From: Candidatus Omnitrophota bacterium
GTDB lineage: Bacteria > Omnitrophota > Gorgyraeia > 2-01-FULL-45-10
Length of the DNA stretch: 64,000 nt
Direction: 5' to 3'
Assembly (NCBI GenBank): GCA_017993955.1
Contig: JAGOLR010000003.1
Location: forward strand, 6,878-70,877
Shown: piece by piece, positions 33,252 through 47,461 of the stretch
Position numbering within the stretch: position 1 is the first letter of the stretch
Layout: each line of letters opens with the position of its first letter
Program-made: the position numbers and the translations under genes
The notes under the pieces: generated by a model
Databases searched by the model: none
What the model was told of the DNA's origin: nothing
What the model saw: the letters and a program-made list of their open reading frames with translations, nothing else

Positions 33252-33278
33252 GTATAATCGTTTAGAACATTTTAAACG
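33231..33278 (+). promoter_or_regulatory. consensus sigma70 promoter TTGACA-N16-TATAAT followed by the inverted repeat CGTTTA-N8-TAAACG (candidate operator)
   Basis: TTGACA at 33231-33236, TATAAT at 33253-33258, and the IR 'cgtttagaacattttaaacg' at 33259-33278. It sits about 30 nt upstream of the regulator gene at 33310. Confidence 0.55.
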
Positions 33279-33309
33279 ATAAAAACTAACCACTTCAATA
33301 AGGCTCTCT

Positions 33310-33804
33310 ATGAATACCAAGCTATTCCAAGCTCAAGACAGATTTATCAGCTATATATGCTCAATATGTGATGATTTCGGGTTTAATAGATTTGTTGCCC
33401 AATTGTACGGAGTACTGTACATGAGTGATAAGCCGCTATCGTTGGATGATATAACTGAAAGACTCGGAGCTTCCAAGGGGAATGTCAGCATAAATATCCG
33501 AGAATTGGAAAAATGGGGCGCCGCAAGAAAAGTCTGGATTAAAGGGTCCCGCAAGGACTATTATGAGGCAGAGCTGGATATAAAGAAGATAATATCCAGT
33601 AAACTAAAAACTTCCATGCAAAGGCGTCTTGCGGGGATGTCATCCATGGTCGATGATGTTATGGATATAGTCAAGGACGATCCCGGAAATTTGAGTGAAG
33701 AAGAAAGGGCTGCCGCAAAATTTGTTGCCGAGAGAATGGATCGGATCCAAGAGCTGAAGAAGTTAGCTTCCACAGCGCTTTCATTGGCAGAAAAGTTTTT
33801 ATAG
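33310..33804 (+). CDS. GbsR/MarR-type winged-helix transcriptional regulator
   Basis: 'LSLDDITERLGASKGNVSINIRELEKWGAARKVW' shows an HTH. It is a small 164-aa protein heading the downstream block. Confidence 0.6.
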   Translation: MNTKLFQAQDRFISYICSICDDFGFNRFVAQLYGVLYMSDKPLSLDDITERLGASKGNVSINIRELEKWGAARKVWIKGSRKDYYEAELDIKKIISSKLKTSMQRRLAGMSSMVDDVMDIVKDDPGNLSEEERAAAKFVAERMDRIQELKKLASTALSLAEKFL

Positions 33805-33812
33805 AAAAGACT

Positions 33813-35081
33813 ATGAATATAGATGCGATAATCCCGGCTCGAAAAGGAAGCAAGCGAATATATCATAAAAATACTCTTTTGATAGGTGGCAAACCTCTTA
33901 TCGAGTATACGCTCGAGGCGGCTCTTTCTTCTAAGTCTATACGTTCGACCTATCTTTTTACCGATGATAAAGAACTGATAAGAAAATACAAAACTAATCG
34001 TTCTGTTAATATAATATCCAGACCGGAGAGACTTTCGCAGGACGACACCTCTCTGAAAGATTCCGTTTTGTATGCAATCAAAGCGTTACTAAAAAAATCG
34101 CCCGCGGATATATATGCCATCCTTCCTCCAGTAGCTCCATTTAGGTCTGCGGCTCACGTGGATTCAGTAATTGAATTTGCTGCGTCATTACCGAAGTATG
34201 ACAGTATCGCTAGCGCTGTATCAGACCGGACCTCCGGTGGGTATAGGCTGAATAAAGCAATATGGCTAATTCCTACCAATAAGACAAATCGACTTAACGA
34301 CATGCTCATCTCATCCAGATCACGCATGTACATGATGGACGAATTTGATGGCTTAGCCATTGAGACTCCCTATGATGTTATGATTGCCGAGGCTGTTCTT
34401 GATTTCCAGAAGGAGCGGTTTAGCTGGGATGCGCGAGGCGGATATAATGTGCAGCGCTTTTACGCGCATGACGATGGCCTTATGAATATCAGACGAAACA
34501 TATTCGATGCAGCTGCTTACGAACGCCATTTTGGCCGTTATAAATATTTCCTCCCCCATATAAAGCGTGCCGACGAAGTGTTGGACATCGCGTGCGGCAG
34601 CGGATACGGCAGCGAAATCCTGGCGGGTAAGGCAAGATCGGTTCATGGTGTCGATACCGATGGCACTACGATAGAATATGCCAGGCGTAATTATGCAAAG
34701 CCCAATGTGCGTTTTACAACATCAACTATAGAGGCATTCTCACCTAAGAAACGTTATGATAAGATAATAAGCGTTGAGACGATAGAGCATCTTAAGGATC
34801 CCGCTTCGTATCTGGCCAGAGCTAATGGGTGGCTGAAGCCTGGCGGGACGATGTGGCTTACGTGCCCGTTGTCGGAGCAGGGAATGCAGGAAACAAACAA
34901 TCCTTTTCACATAGTTAATATCACATACGAATCTCTCAAGTCCATGATGGAAAAACATTTCGAAAAAGTAGATTTCTTTGACCTTACCGGTTCGGCTGTA
35001 TTTTTCGTGGATACGCTGAACAATAAAACGCGGTATATCGTTGCGAGAGGGATCGCAGGTAAACGCACTAAGAAGATATAA
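33813..35081 (+). CDS. bifunctional protein: N-terminal acylneuraminate (CMP-nonulosonate) cytidylyltransferase domain fused to a C-terminal class I SAM methyltransferase domain
   Basis: N-terminal 'AIIPARKGSKRIYHKNTLLIGGKPLIEYTLEAA' is NeuA/PseF-like. C-terminal 'VLDIACGSGYGSEILAGKARSVHGVDTD' is methyltransferase motif I. Confidence 0.7.
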   Translation: MNIDAIIPARKGSKRIYHKNTLLIGGKPLIEYTLEAALSSKSIRSTYLFTDDKELIRKYKTNRSVNIISRPERLSQDDTSLKDSVLYAIKALLKKSPADIYAILPPVAPFRSAAHVDSVIEFAASLPKYDSIASAVSDRTSGGYRLNKAIWLIPTNKTNRLNDMLISSRSRMYMMDEFDGLAIETPYDVMIAEAVLDFQKERFSWDARGGYNVQRFYAHDDGLMNIRRNIFDAAAYERHFGRYKYFLPHIKRADEVLDIACGSGYGSEILAGKARSVHGVDTDGTTIEYARRNYAKPNVRFTTSTIEAFSPKKRYDKIISVETIEHLKDPASYLARANGWLKPGGTMWLTCPLSEQGMQETNNPFHIVNITYESLKSMMEKHFEKVDFFDLTGSAVFFVDTLNNKTRYIVARGIAGKRTKKI

Positions 35082-36433
35082 TGAAAAAAATCACAAATAC
35101 TCCAATAGTTACGCCGCATAACGACATGACAATGTCGCTCCCGACAACTGTTCATATCGAGCTTACATCATCGTGCTGTTTTACGTGCCGTCATTGTTAC
35201 AACTTCTGGCGCAAAGGAAAGGCAAAGCCGGTATTTATTTCGCAGGAACAATTGGACAGGATACTGGATGAATTGATCGATACTGGCATAATGCATGTGA
35301 TATTTACCGGAGGCGAGCCGTTATTGAACAACGCCGTTCTCCTGCACGGTATAAAAAAGATGAAGGATGCCGGAGCCAGCGTCACATGTAACTCAACGCT
35401 GGCTGTGGCGAATACGCTTGAGCAAATGAAAAAATTGCATGCTGCAGGCTTGGAGCATATATTGACTTCATTGAATTCGCATAAGCCGGATATTAATGAC
35501 CATCTGGTATCTGTCAAGGGGGCTCACCAGCGCATAGTTGCCGGTATAAAGAATGCTGTTTCTGCCGGTATCAGGATAAGCGTTAATATGATAATATCGA
35601 AGACTAACATAAGCGATATTTATGAAACGGCGAGACTGGCTCATTCGCTGGGCGCCAAAAAATTTTTTGGAACACGCGTGGTTCCCCACATCTCCAAGAA
35701 CGCTAGTGAGCAGAGTGAGTTCATAATATCGGAGAAAGATGCCAGGTTTATACTTGACGAGCTTCTTAGGGTGGAGAAAGACTTTGGTATGCAAGTTGGT
35801 ACATTGATTCCATTCCCCTTCTGTATGATGGTGGAGAAGGAAGAGGATCTCGTAAAATTCGAAAAATTTTATTCTCATGGATGCCCGTCCGGGAACAAAA
35901 TGATATCTCTTAATGCAAATGGCGACGCTCATGCTTGTGTTCATGAAAGCATGAGCTATGGAAATATCCTAGATATCGGCATAAAAGGCGTGTGGGCGAA
36001 TATGAACCCATGGCGATCCGGTGAATATTTTCCGGATGAATGCAAGGCTTGTGTGATGTTCGAACGTTGTAACGGAGGATGCAGGTTATGTGCCTTTGCC
36101 TATAATGGCACCATGAAATCAGCCGATAATCTTCGTAAAGGGTGGAAGTTTGCGATGCCTGTTTCCGAAGATGAATTGGGTGACATGTCGTTGACTGACA
36201 CAAAATGTCTCGTGCCGCAGAATATGCGTTTTAGGAAAGAGGATGGTTTTTATATCGCTGATCGTTTTGGTTCCGAGATATTATGTGTAAAGAACGAAAT
36301 AGCATTGGTGCTGCGGGATTATCAGAAGAAAGGGAAAGCGTTTTTTCCCAAAGAAGCCGGATTAAAAGATCCGGAAACAGTGAGGTCTCTTTTGAAGGAA
36401 AAACTGTTGTTGAAAGAGGACGTTTCGAAATAG
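35081..36433 (+). CDS. radical SAM protein with a C-terminal SPASM/twitch-type Cys-rich domain
   Basis: 'ELTSSCCFTCRHCYN' (CxxxCxxC), later 'TGGEPLL', and C-terminal 'CKACVMFERCNGGCRLC'. Confidence 0.75.
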   Translation: MKKITNTPIVTPHNDMTMSLPTTVHIELTSSCCFTCRHCYNFWRKGKAKPVFISQEQLDRILDELIDTGIMHVIFTGGEPLLNNAVLLHGIKKMKDAGASVTCNSTLAVANTLEQMKKLHAAGLEHILTSLNSHKPDINDHLVSVKGAHQRIVAGIKNAVSAGIRISVNMIISKTNISDIYETARLAHSLGAKKFFGTRVVPHISKNASEQSEFIISEKDARFILDELLRVEKDFGMQVGTLIPFPFCMMVEKEEDLVKFEKFYSHGCPSGNKMISLNANGDAHACVHESMSYGNILDIGIKGVWANMNPWRSGEYFPDECKACVMFERCNGGCRLCAFAYNGTMKSADNLRKGWKFAMPVSEDELGDMSLTDTKCLVPQNMRFRKEDGFYIADRFGSEILCVKNEIALVLRDYQKKGKAFFPKEAGLKDPETVRSLLKEKLLLKEDVSK

Positions 36434-36434
36434 A

Positions 36435-37106
36435 ATGACGAAACATTACGCGTTGATACCTGCAAAGGAAGAATCAAGCCGCTGCATAAACAAGAACTGG
36501 CGCAAATTTATCGGGGATCGCTCGCTTGTAGATTTTGCAATAAGTACTGTGCCTTCCGGAATTTTTGAAAAGATCAGCATCTCTACAGATAAGCTAGATT
36601 TTGTGGCGCCAAAAGGTGTTGTGAAGCATCTCAGGCGCAAGTCTATGGCGACCAAGAACTCCTGTGTAAAAGACGTAATCCGCCTGCTTATCGAAGAATA
36701 CGATGTTGCAGATAACGATTATTTGTGGCTTTTGAATCCCACATCCCCATTCAGGGCCAGGGGAGACTACGCGAGCATAACCGGTATTATTAAAACGCAT
36801 AGGCCGGACTCGGTCGTGTCGGCATTAAAGCTGCATCCGTTCATTTGGAAAGACGGCAAACCGTTGTTTGAGACTAAGGGCAAGAGAAAAAATACGGAAG
36901 ATTTCAAGGAAGAATATCTGGTCGAGAACGGCATGTTCTATGTGTTTCGCGCCGGGGCCTTTTGCCGCACGCATTCGTGGTATAGCGGTAAGGTATGTTT
37001 GTATAGGCAGAAAGGCATGTGGCCGTCTGTCGATATAGATACCGAAGAAGATTTTATTGAGGCGCAGGAATTGGCAAAGATGTGGACTGGCAAAAAGAGA
37101 AGGTGA
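36435..37106 (+). CDS. acylneuraminate cytidylyltransferase-family protein (CMP-sugar synthetase)
   Basis: 'ALIPAKEESSRCINKNWRKFIGDRSLVDF'. Length is 223 aa. Confidence 0.65.
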   Translation: MTKHYALIPAKEESSRCINKNWRKFIGDRSLVDFAISTVPSGIFEKISISTDKLDFVAPKGVVKHLRRKSMATKNSCVKDVIRLLIEEYDVADNDYLWLLNPTSPFRARGDYASITGIIKTHRPDSVVSALKLHPFIWKDGKPLFETKGKRKNTEDFKEEYLVENGMFYVFRAGAFCRTHSWYSGKVCLYRQKGMWPSVDIDTEEDFIEAQELAKMWTGKKRR

Positions 37107-37110
37107 AGCC

Positions 37111-37959
37111 ATGTTACGCTTTAAGGACATAGAGGGTATTTACCTGATAGCGGAAATAGGTATTAACCATAACGGTGATCTGGATATCGCCAAGCGGCTT
37201 ATTGATGCAGTATTTGCCTGTTCCTGGAATTGTGCTAAATTCCAGAAACGCGATCCCGATCTTTGCGTTCCGGAAAGGCAGAAGCATGTTGCTAAGGATA
37301 CGCCCTGGGGAAAGATGTCGTATCTTGCGTATAAGAAGAGGATAGAGTTTGGCAAAAAAGAATACGATTATATCGATGAATACAGCAAGTCGAAGCCGCT
37401 CGACTGGACGTCTTCAGTCTGGGATATGAACAGCCTGAAATTCATGCTACAGTATAAGGTGCCTTTCCTGAAAATACCATCTGCAAAGATATCCGACAAA
37501 AAATTGGTAGAAGCGGTTGCTAAGACCGGTATACCGGTTATCGCGTCAACGGGGATGAGTGTCATGAAAGAGGTCGATGATCTCGTGGACATATTGAAGC
37601 GCTACTCGTGCGAATTTGCCCTCATGCATACCAACTCTACTTACCCTACTCCAATAGAAGATATTAACATTCGCTGCATACATACTCTCAAGAAACGTTA
37701 TAACTGCGTTGTCGGATACAGCGGTCATGAGTATAATGTCGAACCCACCGTTTATGCAGCGGTACTGGGTGCAAAGATAATCGAGCGGCACATAACCCTG
37801 AACCACAAGATGTGGGGGACCGACCAGGCTGCTAGCCTCGAAGTGGCTGCTATGGATCTTTTGCGGAAAAGGATTCGCGATATCGATCTGGTGATGGGGG
37901 ATGGCAGGAAGAGAGTCACCCGCGGAGAAGAAGAGATTAGGTTAAAACTGAAGAAATGA
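37111..37959 (+). CDS. N-acetylneuraminate-synthase-family (NeuB/PseI/LegI-like) nonulosonic acid synthase, short form
   Basis: 'IYLIAEIGINHNGDLDIAKRLIDA...CAKFQKR' and 'GYSGHE'. The SAF domain appears truncated. Confidence 0.75.
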   Translation: MLRFKDIEGIYLIAEIGINHNGDLDIAKRLIDAVFACSWNCAKFQKRDPDLCVPERQKHVAKDTPWGKMSYLAYKKRIEFGKKEYDYIDEYSKSKPLDWTSSVWDMNSLKFMLQYKVPFLKIPSAKISDKKLVEAVAKTGIPVIASTGMSVMKEVDDLVDILKRYSCEFALMHTNSTYPTPIEDINIRCIHTLKKRYNCVVGYSGHEYNVEPTVYAAVLGAKIIERHITLNHKMWGTDQAASLEVAAMDLLRKRIRDIDLVMGDGRKRVTRGEEEIRLKLKK

Positions 37960-38639
37960 GTGCAGGGAGGATGAGCAATATGCCCGGACCGGATTTTGAT
38001 AAGCAATTCGAATACGAGAACAATTTCTATCTGACAGCGCCTGTTAATCGAATCAGTAAGTTTGCTACGCATCTTGAGTTATTCAGAAAGGTTTCCGGCG
38101 TTGCGGGCGAGATAGTTGAATGCGGTGTTTTTAAGGGGGTTTCGTTATCCCGGCTGATAAAATTCAGGGCGCTTTTCGAGAATGCATTTAGCAAGAAGAT
38201 CATAGGATTTGATACGTTTGGGGAGTTTCCGGAAGCGCGATACGCTGACGATATAGGGAAAAGGGCCCAGTTTGTCAGGGAGGCCGGCAGTCGCAGCATT
38301 GGCTTGGAGGAATTCATCTCCTTGCTGAAAAAACTCGACCTCTATCAGAACATCGAGCTGATTGAAGGCGATATACTTAAGACGGTCCCGGAGTATACGG
38401 CGAAAAACCCGCATCTTAAGATATCGCTTTTACATATTGATGTTGATCTGCATGAGGCGACTGATGTTTGTCTGAAAGAACTGTATCCGCGCGTCTCAAA
38501 AGGCGGGATAGTGATACTCGATGATTACGGCGCTTTTGCCGGAGCGAACAAGGCCATCGATGACTTCTTCGCAGGCAAAAAAATGAAGATAAATAAGCTG
38601 CCGTATTCGAATGCGATTTCTTTCGTTGATGTGATTTAG
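37956..38639 (+). CDS. TylF/MycF-family sugar O-methyltransferase (class I SAM MTase)
   Basis: 'GEIVECGVFKGVSLSRL', 'LLHIDVDLHEAT' and 'GGIVILDDYG' match macrocin-O-MT family motifs. Confidence 0.7.
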   Translation: MSAGRMSNMPGPDFDKQFEYENNFYLTAPVNRISKFATHLELFRKVSGVAGEIVECGVFKGVSLSRLIKFRALFENAFSKKIIGFDTFGEFPEARYADDIGKRAQFVREAGSRSIGLEEFISLLKKLDLYQNIELIEGDILKTVPEYTAKNPHLKISLLHIDVDLHEATDVCLKELYPRVSKGGIVILDDYGAFAGANKAIDDFFAGKKMKINKLPYSNAISFVDVI

Positions 38640-38660
38640 CGCAAGTGGAAAATCCTGTTT

Positions 38661-40259
38661 ATGGCAACTATTCTGATGGTTTACTGTAACAGGCTGGTCT
38701 CCGGGGTTCAGTATTCGGGCATAGCCAGTATGTCAGCCTTTGCAAAGAGAGGCGGTCATAAGTACCTGCTTTTTGACGCAGCGGCATATACGAATGAAAA
38801 AAAGGCAGGATCTTACCGGTCATATAAAGATAACAAGTTCCTTATCGACTTGGAATTCAGGCCGATAACGAATGCGGAAGTTATGCCATTCAAAAAGCCG
38901 ATGGCGGAATTATTGGCCGACCTTGAAAGCGAGCTCTTAAAGAGCAAGGTTGACGTGGTCGGTTTCTCTTCTTTTTCGGACGACTGGCCATTCACCCTTT
39001 TTCTTATACGGAAGGTTCGAGCTATGCTTCCGTCGACCCCCATAATTGTCGGAGGAGTGCACGCAACGGTCGCGCCTGATGAGGTTATTAAGCATGAAGA
39101 AGTCACGATGCTTTGCGTCGGAGAGGGTGAAGAAGCGCTTGTCGAGTTGCTAGACTCGATTGATAAAGGCCAGATCGACACGGCCATACAGAATTTGTGG
39201 ATTAAGACTGGTGATGCTGTCATCAAAAATAGTTTGCGGCCCCTCGTAAGGCTGGATGGTAGTTTTCCGAAAGCGGATTGGACGCTTTACAATGACATGC
39301 ACTTCTATTATCCATTTGAGGGCAAGCTGTTTCGCAGGGGCAGTGTCTTTGCAAGCAGGGGTTGTCCTTATTCATGCAGTTATTGCATAAACGATCTTTT
39401 TATGCGGCTCTATGCAGGGGATAAACCGTGCCGTTTTAAAGGAGTATCATATCTTATAGATGAGATATCGCGTTTAAAGGATACGTATGCTTTGGAGTTT
39501 TTGCGCTTCTGGGACGAAACATTCCTGGCAATGCCCCGTACATATCTGTCCGATTTTGAAAAAGAGTATAAAAGAGAGATTGGGCTTCCTTTTACAATAG
39601 AGACCACGGCCACGACGGTAACTGACGAGCGGTCCAGAATACTTGCAGAGATGGGATGTCAGTCAGTTAGTGTTGGCGTCGAGACGTCAAACGAACATTT
39701 GCGGACAGGTCTTCTCGGCAAGAAAGTTAGCAATGCTGCATACGATGAATGCTTTAGGCTGCTCACCAAGTACGGTTTGCGCAAAGTGGCTAATTTCATG
39801 TTCTTTCTCCCTCATCAGACGCTTGATGACATGTGGAATGATGTGCATGCCTGCAAGAAGTGGAAAATAGACCATCCTTCCGCAAGGATATTCTATCCGT
39901 ATCCTGGCACGACACTGAGGGAGTATTGCATGCGAAACGGAATGATAGACACCGCTGCGCTTGGCTGGATTGAAGATGAAGAAGCGATTAAATCGCTCAA
40001 CAACCTGAGTGAAAATTATATAACGTTCCAGGATACGGTCATGAAATGCGACACGCGCCTAAAGAGAGAAGGCAAAAAGATACTCGATAATTTTATACTT
40101 TTTCAGGAGACCGAAGTGCAGTCTCATGCTCGCCTTGTAGAATTATTAGACAGAGATGACTACGATGCAAAAAGCGTTATACGAACTATGGAATGCGATG
40201 TCTACAGAAAGCGTTTTGGCGAGGAGCCAGTATTAAAAAAGAGCCTGGATGCGATATGA
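38661..40259 (+). CDS. B12-binding domain radical SAM protein
   Basis: 'ASRGCPYSCSYCIND' (CxxxCxxC) and an N-terminal B12-binding-like domain. Length is 532 aa. Confidence 0.75.
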   Translation: MATILMVYCNRLVSGVQYSGIASMSAFAKRGGHKYLLFDAAAYTNEKKAGSYRSYKDNKFLIDLEFRPITNAEVMPFKKPMAELLADLESELLKSKVDVVGFSSFSDDWPFTLFLIRKVRAMLPSTPIIVGGVHATVAPDEVIKHEEVTMLCVGEGEEALVELLDSIDKGQIDTAIQNLWIKTGDAVIKNSLRPLVRLDGSFPKADWTLYNDMHFYYPFEGKLFRRGSVFASRGCPYSCSYCINDLFMRLYAGDKPCRFKGVSYLIDEISRLKDTYALEFLRFWDETFLAMPRTYLSDFEKEYKREIGLPFTIETTATTVTDERSRILAEMGCQSVSVGVETSNEHLRTGLLGKKVSNAAYDECFRLLTKYGLRKVANFMFFLPHQTLDDMWNDVHACKKWKIDHPSARIFYPYPGTTLREYCMRNGMIDTAALGWIEDEEAIKSLNNLSENYITFQDTVMKCDTRLKREGKKILDNFILFQETEVQSHARLVELLDRDDYDAKSVIRTMECDVYRKRFGEEPVLKKSLDAI

Positions 40260-41650
40260 AGATACTCCTGATAGTGTATGATAACGATTCCTTCCTTCAT
40301 TGGTTTCCCCTCGGACTTGGCTATATAGCGGCCGTTCTAAAAAGAGAGGGCCATGACGTGGAGATTTATCAGCAGGATGCGCACCATTTCCCTGAATCTC
40401 ATCTCACTGCACATCTTGAAAAGTCCCACTATGATGTAGTCGGAATCGGGGTTATAGCGGGTTATTATCAATACAGAAAAATCCTGAAGATTTCCGAGGC
40501 CATACGGAGGTCGAAAGATAAGCCGTTTTTTATTATAGGCGGCCATGGCCCAACACCCGAGCCGGAATTTTTCCTGAAGAAGACCGGGGCCGATGCGGTC
40601 ATTCTGGGCGAAGGAGAGGAAACGGTAGTGGAATTATGTGATGCGCTGAGTCGTGGGAGATCATGGAAGGATGTCAAGGGTATCGCGTATATCGATAACG
40701 ATACCGGAAAGCGTGTGATGACCGGATCTAGGCCGCTCATTAAGGATCTAGATACTATACCCTATCAGGCATGGGACCTTTTCGATATCGGCTATTACTC
40801 ATTATTCCGATTTCCGAATATAAGTCATAATCAGCGCGGCCTGCCCATAATTACCGGCCGCGGTTGCCCGTATACCTGCAATTTTTGCTATCGAATGGAG
40901 AAAGGCATGCGTCCCCGGACCGCCCAGAGCATAGTTGCTGAGGTTCGGGAATTGATGAAGAGATATGGCGTGACTTATATATCTTTTTGTGATGACCTTT
41001 TTATGGTGTCTGAGGCCAGGACAAAGGATTTGTGCGATGCATTCCTGACTGCCGGGCTTGGCATTAACTGGTATTGTAACGGCAGACTTAATTTTGCGTC
41101 AAAGGAAATACTACAACTGATGAAAAGGGCCGGTTGCGTTTTTGTGAATTATGGCATCGAGGCAATGGATGACCGGATACTGAAAAATATGAACAAAGCG
41201 CTGACTATTGAGCAGATAGTGAGGGGCGTAGAAAATACGCTCGCTGTCGGCATTAGCCCCGGATTAAATATTATATTCGGTAACATAGGTGAAGACAGGG
41301 AAACTCTTAATAAAGGAGTTGCGTTCCTGCTTAAGTACGATGATGCATCCCAGCTCAGGACGATAAGGCCCGTGACGCCGTATCCCGGATCTCCGCTGTA
41401 TTACGATGCGATCGATAAGGGATTGTTGAAGGATTGCGAAGATTTTTATGAAAGAAAGCATATAAATTCCGATCTGCTGACGGTTAATTTTACTGGAATG
41501 AGCGATATTGATTTTCATCAGTCTCTTCTAGAGGCAAACAAGGCATTGCTGGCAAATCATTTTAAGAAGAAGCTGCAAAGGGCTGTAGAGCAGTCAGAAA
41601 GTCTGTATATCAAAAAGAATGCCGCATTTCGCGGTTTTAGGCAGACATGA
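40256..41650 (+). CDS. B12-binding domain radical SAM protein
   Basis: 'TGRGCPYTCNFCYRME' and N-terminal 'KILLIVYDNDSF...GLGYIAAVL'. ATGA overlap with the upstream gene. Confidence 0.75.
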   Translation: MKILLIVYDNDSFLHWFPLGLGYIAAVLKREGHDVEIYQQDAHHFPESHLTAHLEKSHYDVVGIGVIAGYYQYRKILKISEAIRRSKDKPFFIIGGHGPTPEPEFFLKKTGADAVILGEGEETVVELCDALSRGRSWKDVKGIAYIDNDTGKRVMTGSRPLIKDLDTIPYQAWDLFDIGYYSLFRFPNISHNQRGLPIITGRGCPYTCNFCYRMEKGMRPRTAQSIVAEVRELMKRYGVTYISFCDDLFMVSEARTKDLCDAFLTAGLGINWYCNGRLNFASKEILQLMKRAGCVFVNYGIEAMDDRILKNMNKALTIEQIVRGVENTLAVGISPGLNIIFGNIGEDRETLNKGVAFLLKYDDASQLRTIRPVTPYPGSPLYYDAIDKGLLKDCEDFYERKHINSDLLTVNFTGMSDIDFHQSLLEANKALLANHFKKKLQRAVEQSESLYIKKNAAFRGFRQT

Positions 41651-41661
41651 GGCTTAAATAA

Positions 41662-43578
41662 ATGGGCCGATCAGGCGGTTCGGAAACAACAAATGTCTGG
41701 GTTCAGAAGATCGGGATAGTGCATATAATCATATTTGCTATGAAGGGTATCTTTTGCAGATATGCCGTATATTATGATGTCCGCGGCATTGACGTAATGA
41801 CAGGTTGGTTTATTGGGTTGCTTAGAAAGTCAGGATTGTGTGGTAATTTTTATCCTGAAAAGTTTCTCCTGGCGGAAAAGGAAGGGGAGGGCTTTGCATC
41901 GGTTCAAAGCATGTTTAAAGACCTGGATAAATCAATCGACAATTTTGTAGCGAAGCACTATGCTGCGGAATCGGACAGGTTAAAAAGGACCATAAAGTCG
42001 TATGTTGCGTATGCGTTGCGAAATAATAGCGCTTTCATGATCGCAGCCGGACGCAAGGCCGATGATACGAAAGGGGGTCGAAACCTGTTTTGTATAAGAA
42101 GGCACCCTCTCAATCACATACTGATTGACTACTATGTGAAAGAGCTAGGTTTGTTGGTAGGGGAGTGCGGCTTGCGGGACGTGATAATGTTTTATCTTAC
42201 CTCGTGTCTGTCTATCTGTTCGTCGGTCCTTTTCGCATGTATACCTGAAAGGACGATCCGCGATGCGGTGAATGTGAAACCGTCGATCTGGGTGGAATAT
42301 GCACCGCTTGATATATTGGATTTCTCTTTTTGGAGCGACTTCGTTGACAGGAGCGATTTTGATATAGTGGCGTATTTTGACCGGCCTGACTATGGTGATA
42401 TGGATAAAATTAAGTCGAAAGTCATATCGCGCGGGTTCAAGTGGGTGCAGTTTAACCATCCCCGATCGGCAAGACTTGGCAAGGTTTGTCTGCGCAGGCT
42501 TTTCAGAGGCTTGCCTTTCAGAGGTTATCGCGGTCTGCCCCTCTGGGCCCACATATTCCGCGTTGAATACCAGCTGACTTTTCTTTTGTATGAGGCTATT
42601 TTTAAGCGCTTTAAGGTTAAAATACTCATTCAGCATCAGGAGGCTGCCTGGAAGCAGAATGTTCAAGCTGCCGCCGTTGAATCGGCCGGGGGTATTATGA
42701 TCGGGTACAACTGGTCTATCTATTATTTCCGGTATCTACCGACGCATACATTTCCGCAGCATGTCTATTTTGTGTGGGGGAATGAGGTAGGCCGTTGTAT
42801 TGAGAAGATTGATAAACCGAAGTGCCTTCTGCCATCCGGGCTATGGATAACGTATGATGCCAAGGATGCACCGGCGGCACTGGAGAGCCTTGATAAAGGG
42901 ATTGCATTCAAGATCGCTATTTTCGACAATTCGACTGGTCAAACAACGGCATATTCGCCGGAAATGCTGCTAAGGTTCTATGTGATGCTTTTACGGTTAC
43001 TTGCGGATCATCGCGATTGGGGTGGCATCATAAAGAGTAAAAGCTACGATACGGCTGTTTTGGGATCATTTGCGGGCGGTGAGGAGGTGGTGGCGCAGAT
43101 GGAAGCGCTTATCGCTTCCAGGCGACTTGTGGTCCTCGATCGTAATTATAGTCCATTAGCCGCGTCATCAAACGCTGATATTTCAGTTTGTTTTGGTTTA
43201 AATACCGCAGGCATTATTTCTGGAATACACGGTCTCAGGTCTATTCATTGGGACTGCGGGGGCATAGTGACGCGTGTGGAGAATGCGGAATATTACAAGG
43301 ATATCGCGTATGTTGCGCTTGAAGATCTTAGCGCGGCGATCCTGAAGGCGGCTGCAGGAGACCGAAGTGTAGGGGATTTTTCAAAATGGCGTCAGCAGTT
43401 TAACTATTTTGACGATTTTCGCGCGGCCGAACGCGTCGGAGATTTTATACAAACGTATATGACCGAGCTCCTTCAGACAGGAGATGTGCACCAATCGTTG
43501 GCTCGATCCGTGCAAAGGTATAATCTGAAGAATAATTATACGAGGTCCAGTGCGGAGGTGGTTTTTGCGAAAGCATGA
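41662..43578 (+). CDS. hypothetical 638-aa protein of unknown function; the C-terminal region is paralogous to the C-terminal domain of the 47458-49629 gene product (candidate CMP-sugar transferase-like domain)
   Basis: There are no recognisable catalytic motifs of the common families. It shares 'A[DH][HR]..' and 'A(A/H)SS(N/T).(D/S)IS' segments with the 47458 gene product. A large antisense ORF within it is considered a shadow ORF. Confidence 0.4.
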   Translation: MGRSGGSETTNVWVQKIGIVHIIIFAMKGIFCRYAVYYDVRGIDVMTGWFIGLLRKSGLCGNFYPEKFLLAEKEGEGFASVQSMFKDLDKSIDNFVAKHYAAESDRLKRTIKSYVAYALRNNSAFMIAAGRKADDTKGGRNLFCIRRHPLNHILIDYYVKELGLLVGECGLRDVIMFYLTSCLSICSSVLFACIPERTIRDAVNVKPSIWVEYAPLDILDFSFWSDFVDRSDFDIVAYFDRPDYGDMDKIKSKVISRGFKWVQFNHPRSARLGKVCLRRLFRGLPFRGYRGLPLWAHIFRVEYQLTFLLYEAIFKRFKVKILIQHQEAAWKQNVQAAAVESAGGIMIGYNWSIYYFRYLPTHTFPQHVYFVWGNEVGRCIEKIDKPKCLLPSGLWITYDAKDAPAALESLDKGIAFKIAIFDNSTGQTTAYSPEMLLRFYVMLLRLLADHRDWGGIIKSKSYDTAVLGSFAGGEEVVAQMEALIASRRLVVLDRNYSPLAASSNADISVCFGLNTAGIISGIHGLRSIHWDCGGIVTRVENAEYYKDIAYVALEDLSAAILKAAAGDRSVGDFSKWRQQFNYFDDFRAAERVGDFIQTYMTELLQTGDVHQSLARSVQRYNLKNNYTRSSAEVVFAKA

Positions 43579-44053
43579 TCGCAAGATCGTTCTGCGGAAT
43601 ATATCTTTGATCGTATACGACTTTGACGGTGTCCTTACGGATAATAAGGTCATTCTCCGCGAAGACGGTATGGAGAGCGTGGTCCTTAACAGGTCAGACG
43701 GTATGGCTATGAGAATGATCATGGATAGAGGGATTGAGCAGATCATAATAACGTCGGAAGTGAACAACATAGCGCTCGCGCGATCAAAAAAGTTGGGGAT
43801 AGCGGCAATGAGCAGGGTGAATGATAAGAAGAGGGCCCTTGTGGAGTATTGCGGTAAGCGCGACGTACCATTGAGCCGGGTTTTGTATATCGGAAATGAT
43901 ATAAATGATCTTGAAGTCATGAAAGCGGTCGGGGTTGCTGCGTGTCCTTCGGATGCGTGCGATGAGATCAGGACGATCGCCGATCTGATCCTGCGTTCGC
44001 GCGGAGGGTGCGGCGTTGTGCGGGAACTATTGAACTCATTACAGGCTTTATAG
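43550..44053 (+). CDS. HAD-IIIA family sugar-phosphate phosphatase (KdsC / nonulosonate-9-phosphate phosphatase-like)
   Basis: 'LIVYDFDGVLTDN' (DxDGV motif) and 'YIGNDINDLEVMKAVGVAACPSDA'. Confidence 0.8.
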   Translation: MRRWFLRKHDRKIVLRNISLIVYDFDGVLTDNKVILREDGMESVVLNRSDGMAMRMIMDRGIEQIIITSEVNNIALARSKKLGIAAMSRVNDKKRALVEYCGKRDVPLSRVLYIGNDINDLEVMKAVGVAACPSDACDEIRTIADLILRSRGGCGVVRELLNSLQAL

Positions 44054-44073
44054 TGAAAGATCGATAAAAGGAG

Positions 44074-44976
44074 ATGCGGTATATGGGAAAGAGGACTGTG
44101 AAGATCGGCACTAAAGTTATCGGCGATGCAATGCCCTGTTATGTGATCGCTGAGATAGGCATTAACCATAACGGATCCTTGGACATAGCAAAAAGGCTCA
44201 TCGATGCCGCCTACGATTCGGGGTGCGATGCGGTCAAGTTTCAAAAACGGACTATCGACATAGTTTATAGTCAGGAGGAGTTGTCCAAACCCCGAGAGAG
44301 CCCGTTCGGCAAAACGAATGGTGACTTGAAGAGGGGGTTGGAATTCGGCGCGAAAGAATATGCTGAGATTGACTCGTATTGTAAGGCCAAAGGCATTGTC
44401 TGGTTTGCCTCGTGCTGGGACGAGAATTCAGTGGACTTCATCAGTCGATTCGAAGTACCGTGTTATAAGGTAGCCTCGGCATCGCTTACCGATGATGCTT
44501 TATTGAAGCATCATCGCGCAAAGGGCAGGCCAATCATCCTTTCGACGGGGATGAGTGACATGAGGATGATCGAGCATGCCCATGATGTCCTGGGAGAGGA
44601 TGATTTGATCATTATGCACTGCACGAGCACCTATCCTTCAAAACCGGAAGAGCTCAATCTTGGCGGCATACGGACGTTGCTGCAAAGATTTAATCTGCCG
44701 ATAGGGTATTCCGGTCATGAGGTTGGCCTATACACGACATTCGCTGCCGTTGTACTTGGCGCATCCGTCGTTGAACGTCACATCACCCTGGACAGGTCAA
44801 TGTGGGGCAGTGACCAGGCCGCTTCCGTTGAACCTCAGGGATTCAAGCGCCTGGTTTCGGATATTCGAACCTGGGAGCAGGCAAAGGGGGATGGCGATAT
44901 TCGGATATATGAAAGCGAAATACCCATTATAAAGAAGTTAAGGCGGGTGGGCGGAGATGTCGGTGTCAAAGCATAG
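44074..44976 (+). CDS. N-acetylneuraminate-synthase-family (NeuB-like) nonulosonic/ulosonic acid synthase, second paralog
   Basis: 'CYVIAEIGINHNGSLDIAKRLIDAAYDSGCDAVKFQKR' and 'GYSGHE'. Confidence 0.75.
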   Translation: MRYMGKRTVKIGTKVIGDAMPCYVIAEIGINHNGSLDIAKRLIDAAYDSGCDAVKFQKRTIDIVYSQEELSKPRESPFGKTNGDLKRGLEFGAKEYAEIDSYCKAKGIVWFASCWDENSVDFISRFEVPCYKVASASLTDDALLKHHRAKGRPIILSTGMSDMRMIEHAHDVLGEDDLIIMHCTSTYPSKPEELNLGGIRTLLQRFNLPIGYSGHEVGLYTTFAAVVLGASVVERHITLDRSMWGSDQAASVEPQGFKRLVSDIRTWEQAKGDGDIRIYESEIPIIKKLRRVGGDVGVKA

Positions 44977-45682
44977 AATAGTCGCGGTGATACCCGCCAG
45001 AGGCGGTTCGAAAGGCATTCCCGGGAAAAATATCATAGATTTTTGCGGAAAGCCTTTAATAGCGTGGTCGATCGAGCAGGCCTTGGGTAGTGCTTTGATT
45101 GAAAGAGTGTATGTCTCTTCAGATGATGCCGAGATATGCAAAATTTCAGAATATTACGGAGCGACAGCCATCAAGCGTCCCGCGAGCCTGGCGACTGCCA
45201 GCGCTTCAACGGAAGGTGCGCTCAGCCATGCGGTGCGATCCGTAGAAGATTCCAGCGGTAAAAGCATAGATGCGGTCGTATTTCTTCAAGCTACATCTCC
45301 CCTGAGGGTTACTATAGATATCAATTCCGCCATCGATCTGTTTGTCTCTAAAAAAGCGGACTCTCTTTTTTCCGGTTCCTTGCTCGATGATTTTTGCGTC
45401 TGGGAGCGTAAAGGCCGCAGGCTGAATAGCCTGACCTATGATTATAAGAACAGAGGTCGTAGGCAGGAGAGGGAGCCGCTTTTTCTTGAGAATGGCTCGA
45501 TCTATATATTTAAACCGTCAGTGATCAGGCGGTATAACAACAGGCTTGGTGGCAGGATTGTTTTTTATCCGATGCCTTTTTGGAAATCTTATGAAATAGA
45601 CAAGTCCGAAGATGTAGAGATTTGTGAGTATTACATGCGCAAGAATATACTCAGGAAGGGAGGGTCATGGTGCAAAGACTAG
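44957..45682 (+). CDS. acylneuraminate cytidylyltransferase (CMP-nonulosonate synthetase, NeuA/LegF/PseF-like)
   Basis: 'IVAVIPARGGSKGIPGKNIIDFCGKPLIAWSIEQA' and 'LQATSPLR'. Confidence 0.8.
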   Translation: MSVSKHRIVAVIPARGGSKGIPGKNIIDFCGKPLIAWSIEQALGSALIERVYVSSDDAEICKISEYYGATAIKRPASLATASASTEGALSHAVRSVEDSSGKSIDAVVFLQATSPLRVTIDINSAIDLFVSKKADSLFSGSLLDDFCVWERKGRRLNSLTYDYKNRGRRQEREPLFLENGSIYIFKPSVIRRYNNRLGGRIVFYPMPFWKSYEIDKSEDVEICEYYMRKNILRKGGSWCKD

Positions 45683-46644
45683 TCTATATGAACGGGAAGT
45701 TCGTCCCGGAATCGGAGGCAAAAATTTCAATATTCGATTCGGCATTAATGTTTGGGGACATGGTATTTGAGATGACAAGGTCTTTCAATAAAAAACAGTT
45801 CAAACTTGTTGAGCATCTCGAGCGCTTATATTATGGTATAAAAATATTCAGAATACCTATGAAGATCGATATTGAAGAAATGGAGCATCTTTGCGAAGAG
45901 GTCGTCAGTAAAAATGAACAGGCTTTTGGTAAACACGACGAGCATAGACTTATGATAAACGTGAGCAGAGGCCCCCTAGCTATATACAGCCATGTTTTCG
46001 CAGACAAGTTAGAGCCAACGCTGGTAATAGCAGACTTTCCATTAAAATGGACAGTTACCGGGATGGGAAAACTTTTTGATAAAGGTATAAATGCCGTTAT
46101 AACATCTCAGCGCGCCATACCAGCCTATCTACTGGATCCTAAGATAAAGAATCGAAGCAGGATACATTATCAGATGGCGAATATAGAGGCTTCTTATCAC
46201 AAGGGTGATAATAACTGGGCGCTCTTACTCGACCCAGATGGCTTTATTGCTGAAGGTACAGGAGATAATTTTTTTATAGTTAAGGACGGCATTGTGATAA
46301 CCCCCGAAGGTCGCAATATACTTAGGGGTATAAGCAGGGCTTATGTTTTTGAACTCTGCGAACAATTGAAACTAAAATATATAGAGAAGAATATAGAGCC
46401 TTACGATGTCTATACTGCTGATGAAGCTTTTATGACCGGCACGCCCTTTTGTGCGTTGCCTGTAACCAGTCTGAACGGGATATTGATCGGAAGCGGCGGC
46501 AGGATGGGTAAGATAACAAAACGGATTTTAGACAGGTGGGGAGAAAATGTCGGTGTCGATATAGTCGCCCAGATAAAAAAGTTTAATGAAGAAACCGAGA
46601 ACCTGAATAAGGTTGCCGGTCCCACGCCCTACAAATTCGATTAA
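45667..46644 (+). CDS. PLP fold-type IV aminotransferase (branched-chain/D-amino-acid aminotransferase family). The start is possibly the ATG at 45688
   Basis: 'MNGKFVPESEAKISIFDSALMFGDMVFE' is the typical BCAT/DAAT N-terminus. Confidence 0.7.
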   Translation: MVQRLVYMNGKFVPESEAKISIFDSALMFGDMVFEMTRSFNKKQFKLVEHLERLYYGIKIFRIPMKIDIEEMEHLCEEVVSKNEQAFGKHDEHRLMINVSRGPLAIYSHVFADKLEPTLVIADFPLKWTVTGMGKLFDKGINAVITSQRAIPAYLLDPKIKNRSRIHYQMANIEASYHKGDNNWALLLDPDGFIAEGTGDNFFIVKDGIVITPEGRNILRGISRAYVFELCEQLKLKYIEKNIEPYDVYTADEAFMTGTPFCALPVTSLNGILIGSGGRMGKITKRILDRWGENVGVDIVAQIKKFNEETENLNKVAGPTPYKFD

Positions 46645-46660
46645 AAACAGGAAACAAAAA

Positions 46661-47461
46661 ATGGCCAAATGCTTTAATGGTTTGACGACCGTTAATGTGG
46701 AACTTACGAGTATCTGCAATAAGGACTGTTGGATGTGCGGAAGGCGTAAGATAGATCGGGAATATCCGGCAATTAAACTTGGTTATGGAAACATGGATAT
46801 AAGACTCGTGCGGTCCATAGCTCATCAATTGCCTGATGACATAGTAGTGCAGTTGCACAATAACGGTGAACCATTGATGTATCCGGAATTTGGCACAGCA
46901 GCGAAACTTTTTTCTAGGCAGTTAAGGTGCGCCGATACTAATGGCAAGCTCCTCGTTGAGAAGGCCGATGAGATAATTGGTAACATGGATACGCTTACCG
47001 TATCTACTTTCGAGAATGATGAGGAAGCCGATGAACAGTATAGACTCGTGAAAAAGTTTCTTAAGCTTAAACGTGACAGGAAGCCCAACGTGATAATAAG
47101 GTGCTTAGGAGACGTGAAGCTTGAAAGATACAGGAAGCTGGGTTGTATAATAGCAACGCGCATACTCCACTCTCCGCTCGGTAGTTTTAACTACAGAAAG
47201 AAAGCCACCGTACCGGAGATAGGGATATGCCTGGATCTTTTGAATCATATGGTAATAAGGCGGGATGGGAAAGTGTCGACATGCGTGAGATTTGATCCCC
47301 TCGGCTTAGGAGTCATAGGGGATTGTACCATGGGAAAATTATCGGATATATGGGCCGGGCTAAAACGTAAAAAGTTGATCAATTATCATCTGAAGGGCAG
47401 GCGGGATAAAGCACCGTTGTGCAGTTATTGTGAATTCTGGGGCGTTCCAACAGGGTATTGA
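46661..47461 (+). CDS. radical SAM protein (small, about 266 aa)
   Basis: 'ELTSICNKDCWMCGRR' (CxxxCxxC) and 'HNNGEPLM'. Confidence 0.7.
   Translation: MAKCFNGLTTVNVELTSICNKDCWMCGRRKIDREYPAIKLGYGNMDIRLVRSIAHQLPDDIVVQLHNNGEPLMYPEFGTAAKLFSRQLRCADTNGKLLVEKADEIIGNMDTLTVSTFENDEEADEQYRLVKKFLKLKRDRKPNVIIRCLGDVKLERYRKLGCIIATRILHSPLGSFNYRKKATVPEIGICLDLLNHMVIRRDGKVSTCVRFDPLGLGVIGDCTMGKLSDIWAGLKRKKLINYHLKGRRDKAPLCSYCEFWGVPTGY

Follow-up and report, generated by a model that had tools for sequence, protein, structure and literature searches.

Two SAF-less NeuB-family synthases and their predicted routes to CMP-activated ulosonic acids in an Omnitrophota glycan cluster

We analysed a window of 64,000 nucleotides (the whole stretch of DNA considered here) from contig JAGOLR010000003.1 of a Candidatus Omnitrophota bacterium. 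It contains two synthases of the NeuB family, NeuB1 and NeuB2, together with cytidylyltransferases, a phosphatase, an aminotransferase and radical S-adenosylmethionine (SAM) enzymes (Table 1; other genes are named by their first coordinate). We favour, with moderate confidence, the reading that these genes specify two parallel routes to cytidine monophosphate (CMP)-activated 3-deoxy-2-ulosonic acids for a surface glycan, the products being other than N-acetylneuraminic acid (Neu5Ac), legionaminic acid (Leg) or pseudaminic acid (Pse). Each synthase lacks the SAF domain and is paired with a cytidylyltransferase of the PseF/NeuA family, and both modules recur as units across phyla. An initial annotation of positions 33,813 to 47,461 had named seven components of duplicated nonulosonic acid (NulO) pathways. 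All seven are plus-strand genes with strong domain statistics, located where it had put them or no more than a few codons away; its inventory was sound for the genes it listed and omitted 35081, 37956, 38661, 40193/40256, 41662 and 46661-47461.

PF03102 is the only family match in NeuB1 (database entry P0121) and NeuB2 (P0001), which are 43% identical to each other, and no SAF domain was matched in either. The database start of NeuB2 lies three codons after the start of the open reading frame (ORF) at 44074, and exact lookup of that 300-amino-acid ORF returned no record. Both chains stop approximately 15-25 residues past the TIM barrel, and their alignment to NeuB of Neisseria meningitidis ends at residues 278-284, with no counterpart of the SAF residue Arg314. 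Where the initial annotation had described a reduced SAF region, the domain is absent outright, from both synthases and from all listed homologs. Each homolog search scored at least 8,000 candidates, all at E ≤ 0.001, and the 120 best listed per search are 280-300 amino acids long, with PF03102 as their only domain and an identity to the query of 59-87%; the NeuB1 family runs at 60-87% and about 282 amino acids. NeuB1 and NeuB2 belong to two distinct large SAF-less families, one each, which range over Omnitrophota, Nitrospirota, Chloroflexota, Acidobacteriota, Planctomycetota, Melainabacteria, candidate phyla radiation (CPR) lineages, Elusimicrobiota and archaea; relatives of NeuB2 are encoded in at least 596 matching GTDB genome stretches. 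Both synthases score below the curated cut-offs of the known functional classes, with 250.7 (NeuB2) and 226.2 (NeuB1) bits against 399.65 for the NeuB/LegI model TIGR03569 (NeuB_NnaB) and 207 and 167.8 bits against 340.25 for PseI (TIGR03586).

In N. meningitidis NeuB the SAF domain is reported to position N-acetylmannosamine (ManNAc) (PMC11339185) and supplies sugar-binding residues (PMC11339185, PMC8208679). Residue roles follow PMC8208679 and Gunawan et al. 2005. NeuB2 is identical to the N. meningitidis enzyme at E25, K53, Q55, K129, H215, E234, H236 and D247, the equivalents of which are invariant in both short families, and the equivalents of S132, S154, Y186 and S213 are likewise kept. 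The sugar-side residues are altered: E134 is replaced by Ser in NeuB2 or Lys in NeuB1, N184 by Ser in both, and F112 by Trp. Because the catalytic residues are kept while the residues holding the sugar and the SAF domain are changed or lost, NeuB1 and NeuB2 are predicted to be competent phosphoenolpyruvate (PEP)-condensing enzymes with a rebuilt sugar site. A segment after the KFQKR motif of NeuB2 was considered as a substitute for SAF and rejected, since it counts as an insertion against 6ncs alone, the corresponding segment of N. meningitidis NeuB being equally long.

The best solved relative of both synthases is 6ncs, a SAF-less protein of 290 amino acids (E 1e-40 and 5e-36). In a neighbour-joining tree the two short families, together with short Methylomagnum and Azospirillum proteins and a longer pair (L058/L020), are split with 97% bootstrap support from proteins named neuB and pseI by PGAP, SpsE (1vli), 6ncs and other SAF-bearing paralogs; NeuB1 and NeuB2 are 26-39% identical to the references. 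Only splits of 96-100% were used from this tree, in which the supports inside the NeuB2 clade are meaningless owing to a rooting artefact in the support calculation. The phylogenetic placement that the initial annotation had put forward as a check separates the short synthases from neuB, pseI and SpsE references, which were few and of five kinds, biochemically characterised LegI, the 2-keto-3-deoxynononic acid (Kdn) 9-phosphate synthase BT1714 and animal NANS being outside the tree.

Three cytidylyltransferase homologs accompany the synthases. The methyltransferase domain of the fusion protein 33813 spans amino acids 242-359 (Methyltransf_25/23/11, approximately E 2e-15), and its N-terminus carries the canonical motif IPARKGSKRIxxKN; the P-loop-like N-terminal motif of the CTP_transf_3 fold is present in both 33813 and 44957. 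The equivalent motif of 36435 is degenerate (IPAKEESSRCINKN). The full length of this protein aligns to the PseF model (E 1.7e-14), and it shares 26% identity with 44957 (E 4e-15). All three score below the PseF cut-off of 205.7 bits (118.5 for 44957, 64.8 for 33813 and 54.0 for 36435). Both the 33813-type fusion and positional orthologues of 36435 recur at two other loci, L006 and L092.

An ordinary duplication of known pathways, leading to Neu5Ac, Leg, Pse or plain Kdn and fed by the nucleotide-sugar genes upstream, appears unlikely to us. NeuB and PseF/NeuA-family domains are present as it would require; DegT aminotransferases, short-chain dehydrogenase/reductase (SDR) dehydratases and epimerases, a NeuD-like acetyltransferase and a 2-epimerase are encoded upstream; one NeuB2 cassette (L093) adjoins LegB/LegC/PtmE/PglD-like genes; and the best model for the phosphatase is Kdn-9-phosphate phosphatase. 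However every equivalog cut-off is missed widely, the SAF domain is absent, E134 and N184 are replaced, and duplicated canonical pathways offer no role for the five radical-SAM genes embedded in the two modules. The initial annotation had noted that no canonical PseB/PseC or LegB/LegC pair lies adjacent, and cut-off scans extend this observation to the whole window, in which no NeuC, PseB/C or LegB/C equivalog was found and the SDR dehydratases and DegT aminotransferases fall below cut-offs (for PseC, 263.9 and 218.5 bits against 423.5). No hydrolysing NeuC/LegG and no LegB or LegC, as needed to supply free ManNAc or 2,4-diacetamido-6-deoxy-mannose, reaches cut-off in the window. The suggestion of the initial annotation that precursors may come from the upstream UDP-sugar genes fits these results poorly, as the sole 2-epimerase (13596-14660) is of the non-hydrolysing WecB type (278.2 bits, cut-off 210.15). 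Taken with this epimerase, the upstream genes at 2206-8189, which encode SDRs, an NDP-sugar dehydrogenase, a GFO 3-dehydrogenase-like enzyme, a DegT aminotransferase and a hexapeptide acetyltransferase, look like a pathway to UDP-2,3-diacetamido-2,3-dideoxy-(mannos/glucos)uronic acid rather than to a NulO precursor.

Short NeuB modules also coexist with complete pathways that have their own SAF-bearing synthase. Azospirillum thermophilum encodes a short NeuB, HAD and TylF module back to back with a complete LegB/LegC/NeuC operon, and as that operon has its own canonical neuB we ruled out the short NeuB as the LegI of this organism. A Thermodesulfovibrionales locus (L003) likewise holds both a SAF-bearing and a short NeuB. 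Because of this co-residence the short NeuBs are not simple substitutes for LegI or PseI. The two branches of the initial annotation consequently stand only in part. Two NeuB and cytidylyltransferase sets are present, both NeuB types occur together in the related Omnitrophota genome L092, and a KdsC-type phosphatase fits a Kdn-like phosphosugar logic. The assignment to Leg, Pse or Neu is not supported, given scores far below the NeuB/LegI, PseI and PseF cut-offs and the absence of SAF, and the nine-carbon length it implied is an assumption.

Returning to the reading of two distinct ulosonate routes, the entire gene order of module A is conserved in L092, another Omnitrophota metagenome-assembled genome. 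There a MarR_2 gene of 164 amino acids opens the module in the position of 33310, followed by a cytidylyltransferase-methyltransferase fusion, a radical-SAM/SPASM enzyme (448 amino acids, orthologous to 35081), a weak cytidylyltransferase (224 amino acids), NeuB1, a TylF-type methyltransferase, two B12-binding radical-SAM enzymes (528 and 464 amino acids, orthologous to 38661 and 40256), a PFTS protein recorded as PF27878 PFTS_polysacc in the position of 41662, and a NeuB2-type gene. Three more NeuB1-type loci, from Staskawiczbacteria, Elusimicrobia and one further genome, combine SPASM radical-SAM, B12-binding radical-SAM, cytidylyltransferase and HAD genes, with the cytidylyltransferase fused to HAD in one and to a methyltransferase in another. 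The context of NeuB1 was thus drawn from about four to five loci.

For NeuB2 the genome context was taken from the best 80 of the GTDB stretches. Radical-SAM genes are rare at these 80 loci, where other recurrent neighbours are a thiamine diphosphate enzyme, an FkbM methyltransferase, GFO oxidoreductases and a GmhA-like isomerase. The Omnitrophota and CPR loci differ from this pattern and have a very stereotyped context. In a Saccharibacteria locus (L052) a cytidylyltransferase, class IV aminotransferase, NeuB2, small radical-SAM enzyme and methyltransferase are orthologues of the window genes at 235-456 bits, the aminotransferase matching 45667 at 456 bits, and L093 and L095 repeat the order of module B. 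We scanned metagenomes with the family profile of 46661 and analysed 33 loci, each 8 kb or longer and with the small radical-SAM gene at its centre. NeuB2-type genes accompany it at 27 of the 33, a cytidylyltransferase at 28 and an aminotransferase at 24, the latter being of class IV at 13 loci and of class III at 12, with both in one (L097). The gene orders are fixed, either NeuB2, cytidylyltransferase, class IV aminotransferase and radical-SAM enzyme, or NeuB2, cytidylyltransferase, class III aminotransferase, glyoxalase-fold protein, methyltransferase and radical-SAM enzyme, the glyoxalase-fold protein and methyltransferase being the usual companions of the class III version. Because these orders hold across the metagenome loci with an aminotransferase of either class, the aminotransferase is an integral and interchangeable member of the cassette rather than a stray gene. 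The initial annotation had considered it unusual for sugar pathways; it is a conserved partner of a BtrN-like radical-SAM enzyme that had been missed.

That enzyme, 46661 (database entry P0241), belongs to a family of 1706 proteins of about 266 amino acids, 68-81% identical among the 120 best listed. Its C20/C24/C27 motif (CX3CX2C) and the cysteines C191, C209, C255 and C258 are invariant in 32 members. The best match of the family profile in the Protein Data Bank (PDB) is BtrN (E 7e-11), over the CX3CX2C region and the C-terminal cysteine motifs, and C209, C255 and C258 align with the auxiliary-cluster cysteines of BtrN; the spacing is 18/46/3 against 18/45/3 in BtrN. An AlphaFold2 model of 46661 (pLDDT 73) likewise retrieves BtrN (4m7t) at Foldseek rank 1 (E 4.7e-8, TM 0.52-0.56), with the twitch dehydrogenase SpeY at ranks 6-8. 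The partner aminotransferase 45667 lies below the cut-offs of the amino-acid subfamilies (IlvE_I 185.7 against 245.55, PRK08320 201.4 against 363, Dat 116.8 against 277.45), and its PDB matches are archaeal branched-chain aminotransferases (BCATs; E 7e-54) and (R)-amine transaminases. As a BtrN-like enzyme is paired with an aminotransferase of either fold, the arrangement suggests a BtrN/BtrS-like, two-step logic of oxidation and then transamination acting on the ulosonate or its precursor. In the relative L004 an iron-containing alcohol dehydrogenase with an aminotransferase takes the place of the radical-SAM pairing.

It is improbable in our view that this pair installs no amine and instead performs a DesI/DesII-like deoxygenation, an epimerization, or the supply of an amino acid for N-acylation. 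In the fold search the epimerase EpeE and further SPASM enzymes come closely behind BtrN, the AprD4-like 40256 suggests deoxygenation chemistry within the cluster, the best matches of the class IV enzyme are true BCATs, and an AsnB-like amidotransferase at 30656 could ligate amino acids. BtrN is however the best match by both sequence and fold, with aligned auxiliary-cluster cysteines, and SpeY is also a dehydrogenase; DesII-type enzymes have, to our knowledge, no twitch or SPASM domain. The interchange of class IV and class III enzymes across cassettes fits a generic keto-sugar amination better than it does amino-acid supply.

Module A has tailoring genes of its own. The SPASM enzyme 35081 is NirJ2/AhbD/PqqE-like in NCBIfam, below all cut-offs, with PDB matches to PqqE (E 4e-12) and cytosylglucuronate decarboxylase (E 3e-8). 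A TylF-type gene like 37956, besides occupying the same position in L092, adjoins the short NeuB of A. thermophilum. A B12-binding domain and a radical-SAM core are both present in 38661, 40193/40256 and, downstream, 51471, none of which reaches an NCBIfam equivalog. The second of these probably starts at 40256, in an ATGA overlap, rather than at 40193, and matches the diol dehydratase AprD4 (PDB 6fd2) at E 3e-25; dehydratase chemistry of the AprD4 type is equally possible as methylation for this protein. The PFTS-motif protein 41662 represents a family of 472 cluster representatives. A profile of 32 members of that family found no match in Pfam or the PDB, pairwise BLAST of 41662 found nothing against the LIC12162-like protein of L004 or the C-terminal domain of 47458, and a single-sequence AlphaFold model (pLDDT 35) was unusable. 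As an observation on the window as a whole, seven radical-SAM genes fall within one glycan cluster, four with a B12-binding domain and three of the SPASM/twitch type, and they are joined by more than 12 class I methyltransferase domains, an unusually heavy load of SAM chemistry.

Such a density of radical-SAM, B12-binding radical-SAM and methyltransferase genes, together with a dedicated regulator, a strong promoter-like site and an ATP-binding cassette (ABC) exporter, might instead mark positions 33231-53000 as a biosynthetic gene cluster whose product is a small diffusible molecule, for instance a CMP-linked or nucleoside-type natural product, and the closest solved relatives of three of the enzymes (BtrN, AprD4 and cytosylglucuronate decarboxylase) come from aminoglycoside and nucleoside antibiotic pathways. 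We consider this quite improbable. On the same strand the genes lie between others for glycosyltransferases, GT-C proteins and GDP- or UDP-sugars, the interval itself encodes a protein of the PFTS polysaccharide family, relatives sit beside Polysacc_synt flippases, PMT_2 and GT1/GT2 genes, and the cassette is common in CPR bacteria, which have very small genomes. Cytidylyltransferases of this family are moreover known for making glycosyl donors.

The HAD phosphatase 43550 carries a DFDGVLTD motif and ends 20-30 bp upstream of NeuB2. It scores 95.8 bits on the Kdn-9-phosphate phosphatase model (cut-off 180) and 90.2 on the KdsC subfamily (cut-off 106.95). A homolog lies within 10 kb of the NeuB2-type gene at 68 of the 80 genome loci, directly downstream of it at 28 of 62 that could be scored, and is present at all four of the NeuB1-type loci examined. 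With a KdsC-like HAD and a GmhA-like isomerase as neighbours of NeuB2-type genes at the genome loci, this pattern supports a sugar-phosphate substrate for the NeuB2 family in general. The KdsC-like phosphatase encoded beside the short NeuB of L003 (12471-13511) is fused to a GmhA-like sedoheptulose-7-phosphate isomerase domain (198.9 bits, cut-off 209.45), so that this lineage might make ten-carbon ulosonates derived from a heptose phosphate. The N-terminal 200 or so residues of the equivalent 361-amino-acid HAD protein of A. thermophilum (L091, 9898-10983) have no NCBIfam match. That NeuB2, the HAD phosphatase and the cytidylyltransferase form a non-orthologous pathway to 3-deoxy-D-manno-octulosonic acid (Kdo) from arabinose-5-phosphate and PEP for lipopolysaccharide (LPS) is hardly credible: KdsC models score the HAD almost as highly as the Kdn-9-phosphate model does and Omnitrophota are assumed to be diderm, but the NeuB2 family is common where LPS is not expected (Saccharibacteria and other CPR, Chloroflexota, Actinomycetota and archaea), the region has a separate, bona fide KdsB at 53770, the cytidylyltransferase that partners NeuB2 resembles PseF and not KdsB, and the isomerases in relatives are GmhA-like and not KdsD-like.

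Under the favoured reading of two ulosonate routes, NeuB2 of module B (43550-49629) would condense PEP with an aldose or aldose phosphate, and the KdsC-type phosphatase may strip a terminal phosphate. The BtrN-like twitch enzyme 46661 would turn a secondary hydroxyl into a ketone that the class IV aminotransferase would convert into an amine, either before or after condensation. Such an amination would be oxygen-independent and separate from the nucleotide-sugar (PseB/C, LegB/C) route, comparable in this respect to BtrN/BtrS and KdnB/KdnA. The fused methyltransferase 47458 may then methylate the product, and 44957 would make the CMP donor. In module A (33813-43578) NeuB1 would make a second ulosonate, predicted to be tailored by the SPASM radical-SAM enzyme, the two B12-type radical-SAM enzymes (by C-methylation or deoxygenation) and the TylF-type O-methyltransferase, and to be activated by the fusion protein 33813. 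The PFTS-family protein, glycosyltransferases, ABC exporter and GT-C proteins would place the sugars on a surface polymer.

Several points weigh against this proposal. The activities and products proposed for both short NeuB families are predictions, and a specific kinship of these families to LegI, Kdn-9-phosphate synthase or NANS, all outside the tree, may exist. Class IV aminotransferases normally take alpha-keto acids, and a ulosonate is itself an alpha-keto acid; another role for 45667 is possible, for example in supplying D- or branched-chain amino acids for N-acylation. The match of 46661 to BtrN is remote, at 19% identity, with a TM score of 0.52-0.56 to a model of pLDDT 73, and peptide-modifying SPASM enzymes and EpeE score only slightly lower in Foldseek. 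Not every B12-binding radical-SAM enzyme is a methylase, and 40256 has a dehydratase, AprD4, as its best solved relative. As to the phosphosugar step of NeuB2, a homolog of 43550 is found in one of the 33 radical-SAM-type cassettes (a HAD/SIS-type protein in 8), and the HAD goes with the NeuB1 module in L006 and L092. Given this pattern the HAD of the window may serve NeuB1, with the NeuB2 substrate here unphosphorylated.

Table 1. Features of the 64-kb window discussed in the text, with strand and principal evidence
Feature	Coordinates	Strand	Evidence
Promoter-like site, TTGACA-16 nt-TATAAT	33231-33258	+	12/12 consensus positions (sigma-70)
Small winged-helix protein (MarR_2/CudC-like), first gene of probable sub-operon	33310-33804	+	MarR_2 E 2e-4; NCBIfam CudC E 2.5e-19, below cut-off
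Fusion of N-terminal CMP-sugar-acid cytidylyltransferase and C-terminal class I SAM methyltransferase	33813-35081	+	CTP_transf_3 amino acids 5-127, E 3.8e-16
Radical-SAM/SPASM enzyme, 450 amino acids	35081-36433	+	Radical_SAM E 1.3e-22
Divergent PseF/NeuA-like cytidylyltransferase homolog	36435-37106	+	CTP_transf_3 (Pfam) 23.2 bits, cut-off 22.6, marginal
NeuB1, SAF-less NeuB-family predicted PEP-condensing synthase, 282 amino acids	37111-37959	+	PF03102 E 1.5e-64
TylF/MycF-type O-methyltransferase	37956-38639	+	PF05711 E 5e-21
B12-binding-domain radical-SAM enzyme, class B, candidate C-methyltransferase	38661-40259	+	B12-binding E 2e-13; Radical_SAM E 5e-18
Second B12-binding-domain radical-SAM enzyme	40256-41650	+	Closest solved relative AprD4
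PFTS-motif polysaccharide-biosynthesis family protein, 638 amino acids, candidate transferase by position only	41662-43578	+	TIGR04417 E 2.3e-5, 23.5 bits, below cut-off
HAD-IIIA phosphatase, KdsC/Kdn-9-phosphate phosphatase family	43550-44053	+	Kdn-9-phosphate phosphatase E 2.9e-27; KdsC E 1.3e-25
NeuB2, SAF-less NeuB-family predicted PEP-condensing synthase, 297 amino acids	44083-44976	+	PF03102 E 2.2e-77
PseF/NeuA-family cytidylyltransferase, partner of NeuB2	44957-45682	+	CTP_transf_3 E 9e-21
Class IV (BCAT/DAAT-fold) pyridoxal-phosphate aminotransferase	45667-46644	+	PF01063 E 2.1e-48
BtrN-like small radical-SAM enzyme with twitch/SPASM auxiliary-cluster domain, 266 amino acids, candidate sugar alcohol dehydrogenase	46661-47461	+	SPASM E 8e-7
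Fusion of class I methyltransferase (amino acids ~1-320) and a 400-amino-acid domain, 723 amino acids	47458-49629	+	Methyltransf_23 E 3e-16
HepA/MsbA/PglK-like ABC exporter, fused permease and ATPase	49632-51434	+	ABC_tran, ABC_membrane; HepA family E 1e-142, below cut-off
Third B12-binding radical-SAM enzyme of the region	51471-53009	+	Both domains in scans; outside the interval
HpcH/HpaI class II pyruvate aldolase	53006-53773	+	PF03328 E 3e-37
Bona fide KdsB-type cytidylyltransferase, fourth of the region	53770-54537	+	CTP_transf_3 E 2e-51
Radical-SAM genes of the window	15618-16997, 35081-36433, 38661-41650, 46661-47461, 51471-53009, 60719-61789		

An ORF survey found approximately 60 tightly packed genes, all on the plus strand, filling the whole window, and Pfam and NCBIfam scans identify it as a very large glycan-biosynthesis cluster in which glycosyltransferases, GT-C/PMT_2 proteins, nucleotide-sugar genes and one ABC exporter share a strand. 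An Rfam scan of the 64 kb gave no match. The site at 33231-33258 is the sole 12/12 sigma-70 match in a 20-kb scan. As the total of promoter-like sites in that scan equals the expectation from shuffling and is not above chance, the case for this promoter rests on its position and perfection. It stands in the only real intergenic gap ahead of the module, a gap of 58 bp before the MarR-like gene 33310, and with a perfect site in the sole gap followed by a regulator-like gene, a sub-operon probably starts there with the interval as its core. A minus-strand ORF of 287 amino acids at 43381-44244 is almost certainly spurious, being antisense to two well-supported genes, those of the HAD phosphatase and NeuB2; antisense ORFs of this kind displaced NeuB in naive longest-ORF gene calls at about ten related loci.

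Downstream of module B, the C-terminal part of 47458 has no Pfam match, and the two parts of this protein are separate genes about 1.5 kb apart in an Omnitrophota locus (L001, 14972-15928 at E 8e-84 and 17445-18644 at E 7e-97). Just beyond the interval of the initial annotation the aldolase 53006 and the cytidylyltransferase 53770 have overlapping reading frames, and 53770 passes KdsB subfamily cut-offs (PRK13368 298.2 against 255; PRK05450.1-5 268.5 against 193). The same aldolase and KdsB pair adjoins a NeuB2 cassette in a metagenome locus (L137), and a third, aldolase-based branch to a CMP-activated 3-deoxy-2-ulosonic acid is possible at 53006-54537.

Directly upstream of module A, at 30656-33251, lie an AsnB-type glutamine amidotransferase and a transglutaminase-core protein, which could serve in amidation or cross-linking of a sugar acid carboxylate. 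Further upstream, positions 24677-27152 encode a DegT-family aminotransferase and, after it, a flavin amine oxidase (PF01593), an odd pairing for a sugar cluster, and three successive GT-C/PMT_2 (GT39/ArnT-like) membrane proteins of 466-557 amino acids are encoded at 20092-24672. PMT_2 or GT39 genes are also found beside short-NeuB loci of Staskawiczbacteria (L004) and Methylomagnum (L087). The GC content drops to 0.37-0.39 at 20001-24000 and 48001-50000, compared to 0.42-0.48 elsewhere, and the AT skew is reversed at 20-24 kb; these features hint at a mosaic assembly of the cluster.

Cell surfaces are decorated with nonulosonic and related ulosonic acids, which control how hosts, phages and partners recognise the cell. 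As far as we know, all characterised bacterial routes add nitrogen at the nucleotide-sugar stage. The conserved cassette and its sister module rich in B12-type radical-SAM genes lead us to predict novel sugar structures and a new way of tailoring them that needs no oxygen. More broadly, and only tentatively, Omnitrophota, CPR and other uncultivated anaerobes might make a new class of CMP-ulosonic acids, with a backbone built by SAF-less NeuB and amination without oxygen by a BtrN-like dehydrogenase and an interchangeable aminotransferase, a second family being C-methylated or deoxygenated by B12-type radical-SAM enzymes. Carriers include contact-dependent lineages (Omnitrophota, Saccharibacteria and other CPR), so the cassette could bear on partner attachment. 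It also gives a concrete, testable function to part of the SAF-less NulO-synthase homologs and offers candidate enzymes for modified sialic-acid analogues. Part of the question can be tested in cultured carriers of related HAD-type modules, namely Methylomagnum ishizawai, A. thermophilum and Nonomuraea gerenzanensis. Radical-SAM tailoring of ulosonic acids would surprise glycobiologists, the product itself being inferred. Literature searches on radical SAM with NeuB and nonulosonic acids and on Omnitrophota with sialic acid found nothing, and one on nonulosonic acids in CPR, Patescibacteria, Omnitrophica or Saccharibacteria listed no paper with the term nonulosonic. We found no paper describing the tie of SAF-less NeuB to BtrN-like and B12 radical-SAM enzymes, KdsC-type phosphatases and an interchangeable aminotransferase, in fixed cassettes of Omnitrophota and CPR, although the NeuB class itself has already been catalogued.

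Among known systems, NeuB, LegI and PseI (N. meningitidis NeuB, 1xuu/2wqp; Campylobacter jejuni PseI, 8h2c) share with the window synthases the TIM-barrel family PF03102 (E 1e-37 to PDB entries), a paired CTP_transf_3 cytidylyltransferase and the catalytic equivalents. The window NeuBs differ in lacking SAF and Arg314, in their altered E134, N184 and F112 positions, in an identity of only 26-39%, in forming a separate clade and in having no NeuC, PseB/C or LegB/C partners in the window. A survey from 2021 found that about 30% of NulO-synthase homologs are without SAF, clustered among environmental organisms and uncharacterised, and that these keep the catalytic residues and carry Trp at the F112 position (PMC8208679). 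The window NeuBs match its 'environmental group I' in occurring in environmental organisms, in having a NeuB domain only, in their catalytic residues and in the Trp at F112. The solved SAF-less example 6ncs is 32-33% identical to them, and grouped with the canonical references in our tree.

The Kdn pathway of Bacteroides thetaiotaomicron (BT1714, BT1713) and NANS/NANP likewise combine a NeuB-family synthase, a KdsC-family C0-type HAD and a cytidylyltransferase. The top model of the window HAD is the BT1713-based Kdn-9-phosphate phosphatase family, but its cut-off is not reached, and the likeness to BT1714 is one of gene context. Animal NANS retains the antifreeze-like domain, and we know of no radical-SAM or aminotransferase partners in the Kdn and NANS/NANP pathways. 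The B12-type enzymes of module A share their N-terminal B12-binding-like domain and radical-SAM core with class B radical-SAM enzymes acting on sugars, such as the C-methylases GenK and GenD1 and AprD4; no class B enzyme is known to us to act on ulosonic acids.

In butirosin biosynthesis BtrN turns a secondary alcohol into a ketone, which BtrS then transaminates; SpeY acts in the spectinomycin pathway. The enzyme 46661 shares with BtrN and SpeY a small radical-SAM build and the CX3CX2C motif, with C-terminal cysteines aligned to those of BtrN, to which it is 19% identical; its presumed substrate is a ulosonic acid or precursor and not an aminocyclitol. BtrS and KdnA are of fold type I, and the window aminotransferase of fold type IV. 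As in the oxidise-and-transaminate pairs of BtrN/BtrS, SpeY and KdnB/KdnA, the 46661-type gene lies beside an aminotransferase (24 of 33 loci), and the alcohol dehydrogenase and aminotransferase of L004 resemble the KdnB/KdnA route by which Shewanella makes 8-amino-3,8-dideoxy-D-manno-octulosonic acid (Kdo8N).

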